DNA of 4,141 nucleotides from a virus (lineage: Duplodnaviria > Heunggongvirae > Uroviricota > Caudoviricetes), in IMG/VR virus record IMGVR_UViG_2617270961_000003; one strand, written 5' to 3'. Position numbers and translations under genes: made by a program. This document shows, piece by piece, positions 1-4,141 of the stretch (the first letter of the stretch is position 1; every line of letters starts with the position of its first letter). Under the pieces are notes generated by a model, which was not told the DNA's origin, did no database searches, and saw only the letters and a list, made by a program, of their open reading frames with translations.

Positions 1-118
1 AGACGATGACGTCACTGCCCGGCTGTATGCGCGAGGTTACCGACTGCGGCCTGAGTTTTTTAAGTGACGTAAAATCGTGTTGAGGCCAACGCCCATAATG
101 CGGGCAGTTGCCCGGCAT
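1..118 (-). CDS. insB: IS1 InsB, 5' portion (partial, cut by the window edge; continues at 3746..4141 if the ends are joined)
   Basis: ATG at 118..116 followed by CCG GGC AAC (M-P-G-N), the recalled InsB N-terminus MPGNSPHYG. It is in the -1 frame relative to insA and overlaps the insA 3' end. Confidence 0.75.
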
Positions 119-312
119 CCAACGCCATTCATGGCCATATCAATGATTTTCTGGTGCGTACCGGGTTGAGAAGCGGTGTAAGTGAACTGCAGTTGCCATG
201 TTTTACGGCAGTGAGAGCAGAGATAGCGCTGATGTCCGGCGGTGCTTTTGCCGTTACGCACCACCCCGTCAGTAGCTGAACAGGAGGGACAGCTGATAGA
301 AACAGAAGCCAC
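37..312 (-). CDS. insA: IS1 InsA (transposition inhibitor / N-terminal part of the InsAB' transposase)
   Basis: 91-aa [46 protein letters not shown]... is the IS1 InsA sequence as I recall it, with a zinc-finger-like CxxC...CxxC N-terminus. Confidence 0.95.
55..63 (-). other. IS1 programmed -1 ribosomal frameshift motif (A6C) joining insA to insB'
   Basis: Window 55..63 gttttttaa is the reverse complement of TTAAAAAAC at the 3' end of insA, the known IS1 frameshift site for InsAB' production. Confidence 0.8.
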
Positions 313-344
313 TGGAGCACCTCAAAAACACCATCATACACTAA

Positions 345-367
345 ATCAGTAAGTTGGCAGCATCACC
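345..367 (-). repeat. IS1 terminal inverted repeat (IRL), 23 bp
   Basis: Window 345..367 atcagtaagttggcagcatcacc is the reverse complement of GGTGATGCTGCCAACTTACTGAT. It is an imperfect inverted match to the other terminus at 3731..3753. Confidence 0.9.
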
Positions 368-506
368 TTAAGTTGCATCTCAATTGTTTCTTCAGCGTAA
401 ACAGAGTTTTTATACAAACTGACACTCTGGGTATCATAGTGTAGTTTTTACGATTGTAAATATCCTGCATGCAGGAACTCATCCTTTTGGATGATATCGC
501 ATACAA

Positions 507-1466
507 TTAATTTACCATCAGTCTTAGAGCCAGTTCGTCCGGATAGGGATCGAAGTAATTCTGTGTAAGCAAGTAATCATTAGGATACTCACCCAGATAA
601 TGCTTCAGCAGAGTCAACGGCGCAAGAAGAGGTAATGTGCCAGAACGATAGTTAAGTATAACCTCGCTCAACTCTTTACGCTGGCGTGTACTTAAGTAGT
701 TACTAAAATACCCCTGTATATGCATCAGCACATTCGTGTGATTTTTACGTGATGCAGGTTTTCTGAGAATCGCCATCAGCTTATCACGATACACCTCAAA
801 GTATGATTCAAGGTCCGCCCACTCGTGTATTGCAGCCACAAATGGTCCCATATCTTTATAGCCTGCCTGACTATGCGCCAACAACTGAAGCTTATAACGA
901 CTATGAAAAGCTAATAACTCTCTTCTTGATAATTTCTCCTTGTAAAGGTGATTGAGCTCATGCAAAGCAAAAACTCTTTCAACAAAATTCTCACGAAGCA
1001 CTGGATCATGTAATCGCCCATCCTCTTCAACCGGTAGCCAGGAAAACTTTTCCATCAAAGTGCTCGTAAATAGTCCCACTCCATCTTTACGACCTCGATT
1101 ACCATTTTCATCATAGACACGCACGCGCTCCATGCCACAGCTGGGAGATTTAGCACAAACCACAAACCCCGATACATCCTTTAATTTGTCCATATAAGAA
1201 CGACTAAACTCTGTCATTCTCTCTGTCACATCCTCATTCTGGTCGTGGCTGAAACACATCCGTATATTTCCTTGCGTCGAGCGCACAAGACGTAGAGCAG
1301 GACGCGGAACTGGCAGCCCTATAGCCATTTCCGGACATACTGGTCTGAATGTTACCCATTCCACTAATTTGTCCATTAAAAAGTCAGTTCTTTTGTGACC
1401 ACCATCAAAACGAACAGCAGAACCGGCCAAACAACCGCTGATTCCAATCACAGGTTTTTTTATCAT
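507..1466 (-). CDS. DUF523/DUF1722 fusion protein (TudS-like thio-nucleobase desulfidase-type N-terminal domain, YbgA-like C-terminal domain)
   Basis: 319-aa ORF. The N-terminal third has DUF523/TudS hallmarks: GISGCLAG (Cys12), RPVCPEMAIGLPVPRP (Cys44) and KSPSCG (Cys104, Cys110). The C-terminal half looks like the YbgA/DUF1722-type helical domain. A strong Shine-Dalgarno (GGGGGAG) sits 5 nt upstream of the ATG at 1466. Confidence 0.8.
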   Translation of the reverse strand: MIKKPVIGISGCLAGSAVRFDGGHKRTDFLMDKLVEWVTFRPVCPEMAIGLPVPRPALRLVRSTQGNIRMCFSHDQNEDVTERMTEFSRSYMDKLKDVSGFVVCAKSPSCGMERVRVYDENGNRGRKDGVGLFTSTLMEKFSWLPVEEDGRLHDPVLRENFVERVFALHELNHLYKEKLSRRELLAFHSRYKLQLLAHSQAGYKDMGPFVAAIHEWADLESYFEVYRDKLMAILRKPASRKNHTNVLMHIQGYFSNYLSTRQRKELSEVILNYRSGTLPLLAPLTLLKHYLGEYPNDYLLTQNYFDPYPDELALRLMVN

Positions 1467-1658
1467 ATTCTCCCCCTTGACTAATTCATTAACACATAAA
1501 CTGTGTAGTGCACGGAATAAATTGCCTTTCTGGCGTCATCACTGACAATTTTTCTGTTATGGACTATTCCTAATATAGTATGGAAGTTCTTTAAGTGATC
1601 GGTCGTAATCATCTATCTTTCATACTTACTCTCAACTATCAAAAGTACAGGATTTATT

Positions 1659-2183
1659 ATGAAGTTATGGCCTGTGTTGACTGGCATTGCACTCTCTTTC
1701 ACTCTTATAGCATGTAAGGCCCCGACACCACCTAAAGGTGTGCAGCCGATTACAAATTTTGACGCCAACCGCTACCTCGGAAAATGGTATGAAATAGCTC
1801 GCCTCGAGAACCGGTTCGAACGTGGTCTGGAACAGGTCAGCGCTACTTATGGAAAACGGAACGACGGAGGGATTCGTGTACTTAACCGTGGATACGATCC
1901 AACGAAAAATAAATGGAGCGAGAGCGAAGGTAAAGCATACTTTACTGGAGATACTAAAACTGCAGCATTGAAGGTTTCGTTTTTTGGCCCCTTCTATGGT
2001 GGCTATAATGTAATCAAACTGGATGATGAGTATAAGTATGCTCTTGTCAGTGGTCCGAACAGAGAATACCTATGGATTCTGGCAAGGACCCCAACTATTC
2101 CAGATAAAGTAAAAGCAGACTATGTGCGAACCGCTCAAAAGTTGGGATTCAATGTCAATGAATTATTATGGGTTAAACAATAA
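1659..2183 (+). CDS. blc: Outer-membrane lipoprotein Blc (bacterial lipocalin)
   Basis: 174-aa ORF with a lipoprotein signal peptide and lipobox (LIAC, Cys19). Long collinear similarity to E. coli Blc as recalled (NFDAxRYLGxWYEIAR, FERGLExV, SEGKAYFTG, AALKVSFFGPFYGGYNVI, YLWIL.RTPTI), but clearly divergent from it, roughly two-thirds identity by eye. Confidence 0.9.
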   Translation: MKLWPVLTGIALSFTLIACKAPTPPKGVQPITNFDANRYLGKWYEIARLENRFERGLEQVSATYGKRNDGGIRVLNRGYDPTKNKWSESEGKAYFTGDTKTAALKVSFFGPFYGGYNVIKLDDEYKYALVSGPNREYLWILARTPTIPDKVKADYVRTAQKLGFNVNELLWVKQ

Positions 2184-2211
2184 AATCCCTACCCGAAATA
2201 ATACTTATTAG

Positions 2212-2240
2212 AAAAAAACCAGCCTTTGGGGAGGCTGGCT
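2212..2240 (-). terminator. Rho-independent terminator for minus-strand transcription (candidate tR' of the Q-controlled late unit)
   Basis: On the minus strand: GC-rich stem CCAGCCT / AGGCTGG (2238..2232 and 2225..2219), 6-nt loop CCCCAA, then a T7 run (2218..2212). On the plus strand the hairpin has no following T-tract, so it is unidirectional. Confidence 0.55.
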
Positions 2241-2297
2241 AAATCAGGAAACAAGCTGTTATATGATAATAACTACGTTGCGATTCCAACATTTAAA

Positions 2298-2326
2298 ATG
2301 TTAGACTAATGACAATCAGACAGCAA
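2298..2326 (-). promoter_or_regulatory. Candidate sigma70 promoter immediately downstream of Q (PR'-like late promoter)
   Basis: Minus strand TTGCTG (2326..2321), 17-nt spacer, TAACAT (2303..2298). Position just after the Q stop and before the terminator matches lambdoid PR'/qut architecture. Sequence match to consensus is only moderate. Confidence 0.3.
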
Positions 2327-2338
2327 CTTTTCCTTTAA

Positions 2339-2716
2339 TTATTTCGAACAATCAGCATCCATCTCCAATCGGAGATCCAACACCATCAGCATACCCTCCA
2401 CTACGCCCTCAGCTTTCTGAAGCATCCTGCCAACCCAACAATCAGATCGCCCATGCTTACGTGCAAGCGCCATAAAAGTCATGCCGCCGACATAATAGTC
2501 CACCAATAAATCATGCAAATCGCTGTTGTTCTTTTTCAGACGGGCCATGCACCCGCAAATGATCATCGCGTCATCGTCACAACATTGTGGGCGAGATTTT
2601 ACTTTTGAAGGAATTAATCCCTTAAAACCGGCGGCAATGGACGACCAGGTCACATCTTCATGATTATTAGCCGCCCACGCTCCCCAACGCTCAAGAACCA
2701 TCTGAATATCACGCAT
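2339..2716 (-). CDS. quuD: Phage antitermination protein Q (DLP12 QuuD-like)
   Basis: ORF-track protein contains [35 protein letters not shown]...[16 protein letters not shown] (a Cys-rich zinc-binding motif), matching the DLP12-type Q antiterminator as recalled. I place the start at the first ATG (2716..2714), which has GGAG 7 nt upstream; the track's 2731 start is a TTG and less likely. Confidence 0.8.
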
Positions 2717-2801
2717 CAACTTACTCCACAAAACTCAGACCAGAACGCCAATTACAAGCAAAAATCAACAAAACAGTATTAGTTGATTGTTATCTCTGAC
2801 T

Positions 2802-2939
2802 TCATACTCCTGCTCCTGTCAGTGTTTTGGCGTAATTCTTCAGTATTCGGTAATCGGTCAAAACAGAACCGGGGAAACGATATAAGCGCAGACGCCCCCA
2901 GCGGTGGCGAAGAAGTTCTGCCATATTAAACTCAAACAT
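2802..2939 (-). CDS. ylcG: Small ORF (45 aa) between rusA and Q, position-equivalent to DLP12 ylcG
   Basis: My own translation: [45 protein letters not shown]. Its ATG (2939..2937) overlaps the rusA stop (TGATG), and GGGG lies about 8 nt upstream. It is below the ORF-track size cutoff. The identification rests on synteny and size from memory. Confidence 0.45.
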   Translation of the reverse strand: MFEFNMAELLRHRWGRLRLYRFPGSVLTDYRILKNYAKTLTGAGV

Positions 2940-3301
2940 CATTCATTCCCCATTTCGGTGATGGTCAGTTCCAGCCTCCCACCTTTGGTAACAGGCATCT
3001 TCACAACGCGGTAATCAACGACCTGAGCATCATCCAGCCAGAAACCTGCTTTAGTGAGTGCGTCAAAAGCGGCTTTTTGCAGATTATCCAGGTCACGGCG
3101 ACGGCGATCCGGCATGTGGCACTCAATGCGGATTTTCACAGGCATAGTCAGGCCGATATCCAGCATTGCGTTTTTAATGATTCGGGCGACGTTATCGCGG
3201 TATGCCTGCCCCTCTGCGCTGACGTGCGTGCGCCCGCGATTATGGCGGTAATAGCGATTATTGCTCGGAGGCCAGGGTAATGTGATGCTGTAGGTATTCA
3301 C
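2939..3301 (-). CDS. rusA: Crossover junction endodeoxyribonuclease RusA (Holliday junction resolvase), lambdoid prophage type
   Basis: 120-aa [40 protein letters not shown]...[10 protein letters not shown], essentially identical to E. coli K-12 DLP12 RusA as recalled. The start codon in this sequence reads GTG and overlaps the upstream ybcO-frame stop (GTGA). Confidence 0.95.
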
Positions 3302-3426
3302 GCCTTAATAACCCCCTCTTTCAGCCAGATAACCTGTGTTCTCGCCATACCTTCCAGCGCGCATTCTTTTGCATATGCAGCATCGACTTGCTTGGCATGC
3401 CCTTTACCGGCAATCTTCTGTATGCG
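3298..3426 (-). pseudogene. ybcO: ybcO-like remnant: only the C-terminal ~42 codons remain open upstream of rusA
   Basis: Minus-strand frame ending at TGA (3300..3298) translates ...[40 protein letters not shown], matching the recalled YbcO C-terminus. The same frame is closed by TAG codons at 3429..3427 and 3435..3433, and no ORF of full YbcO size exists. Confidence 0.5.
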
Positions 3427-3507
3427 CTAAACCTAGATAGAATCCACTCTGTGCACATTGAAGCCCGCTCTATGCTTCCTTTCAGGTATTGAAGGGATTG
3501 AGATGGG

Positions 3508-3744
3508 CTAAGCATTATTGGCCTCCTGCATCAGGAGAAAGACAATCATGGAGGCGCGGAGAGGTCTGGTATCAAATATTGGGCTTACGCCTTTTGCATC
3601 CACACACCATTCAGTTAACTGGTCTAAGATAGAAATCCTGTATTTCTCAATAATCGGCCATGAAGCGCTCGGATCATTGCAGTAGTCAGGCAAATGATTT
3701 AATGGCTCAAAAGTTGTATCAGCATTTCCGGGTAATGACTCCAA
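3508..3744 (-). CDS. Hypothetical 78-aa ORF of unknown family; 5' end lies inside the IS1 terminal repeat (possible IS1-truncated gene or hybrid ORF)
   Basis: ORF-track frame starting at TTG 3744..3742, which is inside the IS1 inverted repeat. It is in the same frame as the ybcO-like remnant but separated from it by amber stops. I recognise no family. Coding status is uncertain. Confidence 0.25.
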
Positions 3745-3753
3745 CTTATTGAT
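3731..3753 (-). repeat. IS1 terminal inverted repeat (IRR), 23 bp
   Basis: Window 3731..3753 ggtaatgactccaacttattgat is the IS1 right-end repeat and pairs imperfectly with IRL at 345..367. Confidence 0.9.
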
Positions 3754-4141
3754 AGTGTTTTATGTTCAGATAATGCCCGATGACTTTGTCATGCAGCTCC
3801 ACCGATTTTGAGAACGACAGCGACTTCCGTCCCAGCCGTGCCAGGTGCTGCCTCAGATTCAGGTTATGCCGCTCAATTCGCTGCGTATATCGCTTGCAGA
3901 TTACGTGCAGCTTTCCCTTCAGGCGGGATTCATACAGCGGCCAGCCATCCGTCATCCATATCACCACGTCAAAGGGTGACAGCAGGCTCATAAGACGCCC
4001 CAGCGTCGCCATAGTGCGTTCACCGAATACGTGCGCAACAACCGTCTTCCGGAGCCTGTCATACGCGTAAAACAGCCAGCGCTGGCGCGATTTAGCCCCG
4101 ACATAGCCCCACTGTTCGTCCATTTCCGCGCAGACGATGAC
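3746..4141 (-). CDS. insB: IS1 InsB, 3' portion (partial, 5' end lies beyond the window edge / at 1..118)
   Basis: Track [51 protein letters not shown]...[12 protein letters not shown] matches the C-terminal ~125 aa of IS1 InsB as recalled. The frame stays open to the window end. Confidence 0.9.

Follow-up and report, generated by a model that had tools for sequence, protein, structure and literature searches.

Organisation of the locus

The window, which here denotes the whole stretch of 4,141 nucleotides that was analysed (IMG/VR virus record IMGVR_UViG_2617270961_000003), contains a lipocalin gene on the plus strand that is surrounded by prophage genes on the opposite strand (Table 1). On one side lies rudS, which is divergent from the lipocalin, 192 nt away from it, and has the orientation of the late operon. 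On the other side the antiterminator gene Q and a remnant of a nin region are found. The preliminary description of this DNA had already called a Blc-type lipocalin adjoining a DUF523/DUF1722 gene and a prophage Q module, and these assignments proved correct based on the exact open reading frame and the Pfam, NCBIfam, and PDB matches. Neither ampC nor sugE/gdx is present in the window, and the same is true for ISEcp1. For frd, ampC, gdx/sugE, and ecnB, the window and the intact prophage of Escherichia coli R32_14_1F were both searched without a match. An Rfam scan of the window yielded nothing above the gathering thresholds.

Table 1. Coordinates of the genes, mobile element parts, and putative regulatory sites in the window.
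Feature	Position	Strand	Basis
insA end of IS1 (inverted repeat up to 367)	1..367	-	Pfam InsA domains; IS1 end sequence
rudS (TudS/DUF523 fused to DUF1722), 319 aa	507..1466	-	Pfam 2-thiour_desulf + DUF1722
Conserved upstream region, presumed lipocalin promoter	1555..1658	+	Allele conservation
AATATAGTATGGAAG in lipocalin upstream region	about 1572-1586	+	
-10-like CATACTTA in lipocalin upstream region	1621-1628	+	
Ribosome-binding site AGGA for lipocalin	1649-1652	+	Read from sequence
Lipocalin gene (phage-borne Blc, clade B)	1659..2183	+	ATG-to-TAA ORF, 174 aa
Type II (lipoprotein) signal peptide MKLWPVLTGIALSFTLIA-C19-K20	1659..1715	+	Read from translation
Intrinsic terminator, 9-bp GC-rich stem then T7	2210..2240	-	Terminator scan
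Candidate pR' of the late operon, just downstream of Q (TTGCTG, 17 nt, TAACAT)	2298..2326	-	Read from sequence
Antiterminator Q, convergent with lipocalin	2339..2716	-	Pfam Phage_antitermQ 2.5e-51; RefSeq annotation in R32_14_1F prophage
Prophage nin-region remnant	2802..3744	-	
ylcG	2802-2942	-	
rusA	2939-3301	-	
DUF1364 fragment	about 3298-3387	-	
ninX, truncated by IS1	3508-3730	-	
IS1, insB end	3731..4141	-	Pfam DDE_Tnp_IS1

RudS proteins combine a TudS desulfidase with DUF1722 in one fusion, take 4-thiouridine (s4U) off tRNA, and lessen the UVA-induced growth delay (PMC11417400). RudS_vir of phage 1H12 (H3V29_gp66) has been cloned and lowered the s4U of tRNA (PMC11417400; 2024). Its cysteines Cys12, Cys44, and Cys110 are all present in the RudS of the window. 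PADLOC did not match the lipocalin, RudS, or the AraC-like protein to any defence system.

Both ends of the window consist of IS1 sequence, which the preliminary description did not mention. The first 10 nt of the window are identical to the last 10 nt (AGACGATGAC), and the two IS1 pieces add up to exactly one 768-bp IS1 (367 + 411 - 10). Because of this end overlap and the length arithmetic the window represents a circularly permuted loop of one IS1 and 3363 bp. It contains a single IS1 equivalent split over both ends, and the outer flanks lie beyond the window. The left IS1 junction is identical to one in E. coli ET650, where IS1 has inserted into the chromosome. The right junction was found nowhere else, and the IS1 of HeN100 is located about 58 bp further into ninX. 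An exact-match scan of IMG/VR found neither of the two IS1 junctions, and PLSDB contains no 4-kb plasmid resembling the window. The simplest reading is that a prophage in decay was flanked by two direct IS1 copies and was collapsed into this loop by the assembly.

The lipocalin protein

Judged from its sequence, the window protein is an intact Blc-subfamily lipoprotein. Residues 35-174 match the Lipocalin_2 profile of Pfam (PF08212; E=7.2e-44; profile positions 2-146 of 146), and the NCBIfam model NF007786 ('outer membrane lipoprotein Blc') is matched over the full length with 316.1 bits, compared to a cut-off of 267 and to the 345 bits of K-12 Blc. The protein also matches phrog_2809 of PHROG over its full length and is identical to RefSeq WP_000780581.1 ('lipocalin family protein'). 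At the nucleotide level, there is not a single difference to the gene copy in E. coli R32_14_1F. The preliminary description had stated that the gene is not the K-12 allele. In agreement with this, the protein shares only 60% identity with the Blc of K-12 (from MG1655) over 174 residues with zero gaps, which is far from the near-identity expected for the host's own chromosomal blc. The best matches to solved structures are those of E. coli Blc (3MBT with E=3.5e-69, 1QWD and 2ACO with E about 1e-68). An AlphaFold2 model built from a shallow alignment of 26 close homologues is of low confidence (pLDDT 57.7). The eight-stranded β-barrel fold of the lipocalins is nevertheless near-certain because of the ungapped 60% identity to the solved Blc.

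The lipobox comprises L16-I17-A18-C19 and is followed by K20, a non-Asp residue, at the +2 position. Cys19 and the lipobox are kept in both Blc clades described below, and Cys19 is invariant across the 26 homologues. According to the Lol +2 rule, a non-Asp residue at this position leads to sorting to the outer membrane, and the window lipocalin is thus predicted to be sorted there via Lol. R52, which reportedly lies where the pocket opens in K-12 Blc (PMC7026729), is conserved.

Putative promoters and terminator

The two main prophage alleles of the cassette are 95% identical over about 100 nt upstream of blc and about 83% identical in the rudS-proximal half of the rudS-blc intergenic region. 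The stretch upstream of the phage lipocalin aligns with CAATATACTACGAATAT and CTACACTTA, which are conserved 5' of the chromosomal clade-B lipocalins. At the position equivalent to the phage -10-like element, the K-12 blc has TCTACACTTAG, which we take to resemble an extended -10 as found in sigma-S promoters. Compared to K-12, the element of the phage is weaker, being T-CATACTTA or T-AATACTTA depending on the allele, and has no T at -12 (CATACT, and AATACT in the other allele). A scan for consensus sigma-70 sites gave none in the lipocalin upstream region. Because the phage -10 is weaker and the scan found no consensus site, we can only infer the blc promoter, and the lipocalin would be transcribed from its own promoter within the conserved 100 nt. 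The K-12 blc has been reported to be induced in stationary phase (PMC8177097).

The only strong terminator near the lipocalin faces the opposite strand. Its fold has an energy of -26.9 kcal/mol (z = -4.3), and its stem is invariant among the alleles while the flanks are variable. It is also located 3' of the lipocalin, but a U-tract is missing on the plus strand. Since the terminator lies directly downstream of Q, it is likely to be tR' of the prophage late operon. The candidate pR' does not appear in the output of a consensus promoter scan. In the 1H12 allele its -35 is conserved and its -10 is TAATGT, which retains the TAnnnT form. Judged by their position, the two elements would constitute the pR'/tR' pair of the late operon.

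Distribution in E. coli genomes, prophages, and phages

The part of the window that is not IS1 (365-3730; 3.36 kb) is found as one block with 99.8-99.9% identity in many complete E. coli chromosomes. In R32_14_1F this block is part of an intact lambda-like prophage next to ybhC (the attachment site), and no IS1 is present. The genes there are arranged in the order ninX, rusA, ylcG, Q, lipocalin (on the opposite strand), rudS, AraC-like gene, essD, rrrD, and Rz, and terminase, head, and tail genes follow beyond Rz. The order Q, blc, rudS, AraC-like gene, essD, and rrrD is also found in RM14516, BL21(DE3), and phage 1H12.

The phage-type lipocalin is present in 1141 of the 5426 complete E. coli genomes, including BL21(DE3). 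It is almost always a single and chromosomal copy (a median of 1 place per genome, and 2 plasmid places only), and its setting is always a lambdoid prophage. RudS is encoded in 1136 of the 5426 genomes, with its identity bands distributed as for blc. The DNA of the chromosomal blc is too divergent to be reached by distant blastn with the window lipocalin, which only returned the blc of plasmid CMY units (67% DNA identity over 75% of the gene), and the MG1655 blc was therefore searched separately. This search, which also answers the question raised in the preliminary description whether the hosts have a canonical blc, found the gene in 5425 of the 5426 genomes. The window lipocalin is accordingly an extra copy, and the horizontal acquisition that had been suggested for it is supported by its presence in lambdoid prophages of genomes that also have the canonical gene.

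Several isolated, plaque-forming phages contain the cassette with the lipocalin annotated as 'Lipocalin Blc', namely 1H12, Lambda_2E9, Lambda_4B5, the ev series, and IdasGreatGrand. In phage 1H12, gp66 (RudS) adjoins gp65, the lipocalin. At least 130 IMG/VR contigs contain the blc-rudS cassette. Of these, 80 loci were retrieved, and the order EssD, AraC, RudS, Blc, and Q is kept in 78 of them as far as the contigs reach, with a gap of exactly 192 nt between rudS and blc in 76. Phages ev243, mEp332, ev099, and others share the block from Q to ninX but do not have the cassette. Because such similar phages exist, blc-rudS is regarded as accessory, having been inserted downstream of Q at the site that is classic for morons. 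The cassette is not always intact. The lipocalin is split by IS1-corA-IS1 in NCTC9080 and truncated in several other E. coli matches, and BL21(DE3) has an intact lipocalin but a destroyed rudS. In E. coli, blc and rudS form a fixed two-gene cassette without a regulator, which is located between Q/tR' and the AraC-like and lysis genes.

The cassette represents neither a fresh nor an unusual acquisition but is fixed, widespread, and published as a lambda moron (PMC6969025). In that study of 19 lambda-type phages of infant-gut E. coli, blc, 'a bacterial lipocalin', is a moron in more than 50% of the phages (Mathieu et al. 2020, PMC6969025). The phage blc moron is therefore already known: it was published in 2020, and more than a thousand complete E. 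coli genomes have the gene annotated.

Two clades of Blc in the Enterobacterales

The closest non-phage proteins have 82% identity to the window lipocalin (metagenomic, Enterobacter-like), and proteins from Cedecea, Scandinavium, Klebsiella, Pantoea, Kosakonia, and Raoultella have 74-80%. For the comparison of enterobacterial lipocalin loci, one genome per species was scanned and the neighbourhoods were typed by tblastn. The loci belong to two clades. The proteins of clade A share 57-64% identity with the window protein and 75-79% with K-12 Blc, and all clade-A loci have the neighbourhood frdD-(ampC)-blc-gdx/sugE-ecnB. Members are found in Salmonella, Citrobacter (C. freundii), and Atlantibacter, and the second copy of Buttiauxella belongs here as well. 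The proteins of clade B share 74-82% identity with the window protein and their genes are divergent from an MlrA-like MerR gene. Clade B is present in Enterobacter, Leclercia, Buttiauxella, Raoultella, Klebsiella, Cedecea, and Scandinavium. In seven Enterobacter species, Leclercia, Buttiauxella, Raoultella, and metagenomic contigs, a 319-aa RudS is encoded behind the MerR gene, with an optional HIUase/transthyretin-like gene between the two. Huaxiibacter has the HIUase-like gene and RudS, and no MerR match was found there. Cedecea, Scandinavium, and Klebsiella have an operon of SnoaL, SDR, amine oxidase, DUF1365, CFA-synthase, and DUF2878 behind the MerR gene. Buttiauxella izardii has both clades in one assembly.

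In a neighbour-joining tree the window protein is nested within clade B, on a longer branch. Its mean identity is 79% to clade B versus 60% to clade A, and at the fixed differences between the clades (P30, E50, N51, D80, K83, S131) it has the clade-B residue in 6/6 and the clade-A residue in 0/6 cases. In addition, the RudS of the window shares 70-73% identity with its counterparts in the clade-B loci. The lipocalin had been described as uncoupled from its usual ampC/sugE neighbourhood. This description does not hold because the gene belongs to a separate Blc clade whose native neighbourhood is the MlrA-like MerR gene and RudS. Since RudS is part of the clade-B locus in the closest relatives, the DUF523/DUF1722 gene is the original partner of the lipocalin and not an odd new one, and the 'uncoupling' is a misreading of paralogy.

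Because of the shared lipocalin clade and RudS, the phage cassette looks like an Enterobacter-type clade-B locus minus the MerR and HIUase-like genes. An MlrA-like MerR gene next to the lipocalin is absent from the window, the whole R32_14_1F prophage, and all 80 retrieved IMG/VR loci, and pseudogene remnants of MerR or HIUase are present neither in the window nor in the whole R32_14_1F prophage. All chromosomal clade-B lipocalins have the exact 10-mer TGCACTACAC upstream. The phage has it in inverted form upstream of rudS, and it may be an operator, a promoter element, or the scar of a rearrangement. The GC content is 43.8% for blc and 43.3% for rudS, compared to 47.9% for Q, 51.4% for ylcG-rusA, and 51-60% for the chromosomal homologues. 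The low GC content of the cassette fits a joint capture followed by a long stay in phages, or a donor of low GC content outside the sampled genomes. A chromosomal donor with more than 82% identity was not found. Because of this and because the GC content is unlike that of the sampled homologues, co-capture from one locus is plausible but unproven; what the sequences suggest is that the phage blc was plausibly captured together with rudS from a MerR-linked locus.

A general link of more distant lipocalins to MerR, RudS, CFA-synthase, and photolyase was considered and rejected. Among about 50 loci of distant lipocalins from gammaproteobacteria, Bacteroidota, and other groups, photolyase is found near two and RudS near one. 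The association with MerR and RudS is therefore only claimed for the enterobacterial clade B.

Comparison with known systems

The blc moron of the lambda-type coliphages (1H12 gp65, WP_000780581.1, phrog_2809) is the same gene with 97-100% protein identity and is located at the same position between Q and the rudS/lysis genes. The window differs in that its surrounding prophage has been cut down by IS1 on both sides, and in nothing else of substance. Blc of K-12 (b4149; 1QWD, 2ACO, 3MBT), which is encoded in the ampC-blc-gdx(sugE) locus, belongs to the same NCBIfam subfamily and has a length within 3 residues. Both proteins have Cys19, GxWYEIAR, FFGPFYGGYNV, and R52 in common and align without gaps. 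However, the window lipocalin differs at all six clade-diagnostic positions and does not have frd, ampC, gdx, or ecn neighbours, and the phage gene adds a copy and replaces none. The chromosomal clade-B lipocalins share the N-terminus ACK(S/A)PTPPKGVQP, have RudS nearby (Enterobacter type), and share part of the upstream elements. In contrast to these, the phage copy comes with neither MerR nor the HIUase-like gene, has a GC content of 43-44%, and resides in a phage late region. The ISEcp1-blaCMY-2-blc-sugE units, which originated from Citrobacter freundii, likewise represent a mobilised Blc-family gene in E. coli. Their blc, however, belongs to clade A, is plasmid-borne, and has ISEcp1 as vehicle, whereas the vehicle of the window gene is a phage. 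Like the window protein, Bor, Cor, and T5 Llp are small envelope lipoproteins that are encoded by prophages and not needed for phage growth, and Bor is found in the same phages. They act in serum resistance or receptor blocking. The window protein has no sequence relationship to any of them and has the ligand-binding fold of the lipocalins.

Proposed role of the phage lipocalin and alternatives

The window gene is the blc-type lipocalin moron of lambdoid coliphages, and we give this reading, together with the mechanism proposed below, a probability of about 0.75. The two main prophage alleles of blc differ at 25-26 of the 525 nt and at 5 of the 174 residues, and the resulting dN/dS of 0.06 indicates that the phage blc is kept functional under strong purifying selection. 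For rudS, the dN/dS between the alleles is 0.11. The precursor would be exported, lipidated at Cys19, and sorted by the Lol system to the periplasmic face of the outer membrane. Based on the homology to Blc, the cavity of the β-barrel could bind hydrophobic envelope molecules, namely lysophospholipids, fatty acids, and possibly tetrapyrroles, and the outer membrane of the lysogen might be helped in this way under stationary-phase, osmotic, or photo-oxidative stress. For K-12 Blc, binding of lysophospholipids has been described, and haem or other tetrapyrroles are possible further ligands (PMC7026729, PMC8177097). The physiological role suggested here for the phage lipocalin is drawn by analogy from this K-12 protein, which is only 60% identical, and literature searches on the function of the phage lipocalin or on a link between LitR and lipocalins gave nothing specific. 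As a moron, blc would be expressed in the lysogen from its own upstream promoter. Because blc is convergent with Q, the lipocalin is antisense to late transcription. By contrast, rudS, the AraC-like gene, and the lysis genes have the orientation of the late operon. Transcripts from pR' that are antiterminated by Q would pass tR', cross blc in antisense, and lead to the expression of these genes.

A more specific scenario connects the cassette to photo-stress. Lambdoid phages would have lifted blc-rudS from a locus controlled by an MlrA/LitR-like MerR regulator. The clade-B lipocalins would be a distinct Blc paralogue that is tied to light-induced or oxidative damage of the envelope and might bind, for example, photo-oxidised lipids or photosensitising tetrapyrroles. 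RudS, expressed from the late operon, would remove s4U from tRNA so that translation could continue after UV-triggered induction, and blc would be on in the lysogen and be silenced by the antisense late transcription. Taken jointly, the regulator-stripped cassette, the distinct clade-B paralogue, the late-operon rudS, and the antisense-silenced blc make up a tentative proposal, which we consider possible and not probable.

Instead of handling lipids, the lipocalin could be an outer-membrane lipoprotein for superinfection exclusion or receptor masking, like T5 Llp or the lambdoid Cor. It is a prophage-encoded lipoprotein of the outer-membrane type among surface morons, with Bor being nearby in phage 1H12, and membrane proteins predominate among the lambda morons (Mathieu et al., PMC6969025). 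However, the protein has retained about 80% identity to the chromosomal clade-B lipocalins including R52 and the residues at all six positions that distinguish the clades, PADLOC has no match for it, and the close association with rudS suggests a stress cassette. An exclusion function is thus improbable.

Even less can be said for the lipocalin being a passive hitch-hiker, which is carried along or decaying while selection acts on rudS or the Q-lysis region. This would agree with blc being antisense to late transcription and with the disrupted copies, such as that of NCTC9080 and the several truncated matches. But the open reading frame is intact and evolves with a dN/dS of only 0.06 despite the 25-26 nucleotide differences between the alleles. 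In addition, the 100 nt upstream of blc are more conserved than the remaining intergenic region, and BL21(DE3) has kept the lipocalin while its rudS has been destroyed. Hitch-hiking is therefore very unlikely.

To a similarly small degree we believe in a mobile unit, an IS1 composite transposon or circle comprising the IS1-bounded 3.36-kb segment, that moves the lipocalin independently of the phage. The 10-nt end overlap of the window, with its one IS1 and 3363 bp, implies a circular topology, and IS1 composites do form in this region as shown by IS1-corA-IS1 in NCTC9080. However, such a loop is the expected artefact of a short-read assembly between two direct IS1 copies, and the left junction is a simple chromosomal IS1 insertion in ET650. 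A second location of the segment was not seen (median of 1 place per genome, 2 plasmid places only), and the junctions are absent from IMG/VR.

There is practically no chance that the lipocalin arose by an IS1-mediated relocation, be it of the host's blc or of the Citrobacter-derived copy in a blaCMY/ISEcp1 unit: although IS1 flanks the segment in the window and blc is known to travel with blaCMY units (as in the plasmid matches), such an origin is refuted by the 60% identity to K-12 Blc, the mismatch to the plasmid blc (67% DNA identity over 75% of the gene), the additional presence of the canonical blc, the assignment of C. freundii Blc to clade A, the absence of ampC, sugE, and ISEcp1 from the window, and the same 3.36 kb being colinear at 99.9% in intact prophages without IS1.

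Implications

The finding of a lipocalin moron at this locus is correct but ordinary, as it concerns a common lambda moron whose neighbour RudS has been characterised biochemically. The new insight is modest and consists of the two clades of Blc paralogues in the Enterobacterales, with the phage copy belonging to the clade linked to MerR and RudS. Work in which 'blc' counts as one gene, SNP-association analyses of gut E. coli among it, may therefore be confounded in the roughly 21% of strains that have a second copy with 60% identity. Similarly, the statement that E. coli lacks RudS is true only of strains without a blc-rudS prophage cassette. The combination of a lipocalin with a tRNA-s4U desulfidase, in a type of locus that is thought to be light-responsive, provides a testable lead on the physiological role of bacterial lipocalins.

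Terminal IS1 and the nin region

The ends of the window overlap by ten nucleotides within IS1 (Table). Because the two IS1 pieces add up to one complete element once this overlap is considered, the window is a circular permutation consisting of IS1 plus 3363 bp. Either the assembly closed a loop between two IS1 copies in direct orientation, or the circle is real and bounded by IS1. The remnant of DUF1364 (ybcO) is also found in intact-looking prophages such as L001, the lambda-like prophage of E. coli R32_14_1F; the decay of the nin region is already present independently of IS1.

Table. Coordinates of the features in the window and in the loci compared
Feature	Sequence	Position	Strand	Remark
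Overlapping window ends	window	1-10 and 4132-4141		within IS1
IS1 pieces	window	1-367 and 3731-4141		sum to exactly one 768-bp element
rudS	window	507-1466	-	DUF523-DUF1722 gene
10-mer TGCACTACAC	window	1503-1512	-	exact match
blc (phage lipocalin)	window	1659-2183	+	
Decayed nin region	window	3298-3744		DUF1364 (ybcO) reduced to a 90-nt fragment between rusA and ninX
AraC-family regulator	L001	17060-17791		243 aa; outside the window, just past the left IS1
Interrupted phage lipocalin	L087 (E. coli NCTC9080)	7295-11069		
Intact phage lipocalin and truncated rudS	L091 (BL21(DE3))	3221-4084		Qin-type prophage

Neighbouring genes and a shared 10-mer

In intact prophages an AraC-family gene is located between rudS and the holin gene, and it has been kept in nearly all of the 80 IMG/VR loci carrying the rudS-blc cassette. 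The L001 regulator belongs to phrog_1450 and is distantly YdeO/GadX-like, at 127 bits, which is below the cut-off. The chromosomal clade-B loci, in which blc stands beside an MlrA-like MerR gene, have a periplasmic-type HIUase/transthyretin-like gene of variable presence between the MlrA-like regulator and rudS (position taken from the Enterobacter-type loci L014, L004, and L008-L013), and this gene was never found in the phage cassette. Of the 14 MerR/RudS-linked clade-B loci checked, 12 carry the exact 10-mer TGCACTACAC about 43 nt upstream of where the lipocalin gene starts, and the other two (L011 and L017) lack it. It occurs once in the phage, inverted and about 40 nt upstream of rudS, at a chance expectation of about 0.2 with one mismatch allowed. 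It may be an operator, a promoter element, or a rearrangement scar.

Lipocalin copies in other strains and contigs

The phage lipocalin of BL21(DE3) is intact, and one of its four substitutions is R52W, at the entrance of the pocket; the rudS of this prophage, by contrast, has been truncated by IS3. Two Blc-type proteins are therefore present in BL21(DE3), a common expression strain. In E. coli NCTC9080 the phage lipocalin is interrupted by two inverted IS1A copies that carry the chromosomal corA and ysgD genes, and the insert resembles an IS1 composite transposon with a captured magnesium transporter gene. The 2113-bp contig L007 (JARKOR010000135.1), binned in a public 'Candidatus Nanosynbacter sp.' MAG (Saccharibacteria), is 99% identical over its whole length to the rudS'-blc-Q fragment of this E. 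coli prophage and is almost certainly a mis-binned contaminant.

Base composition of the cassette

The GC contents of rudS (43.3%) and blc (43.8%) are nearly equal and low, the closest chromosomal homologues of both genes having 51-60%. This suggests that the two genes have long resided together in phages, or else that they came from a donor richer in AT that has not been sampled.
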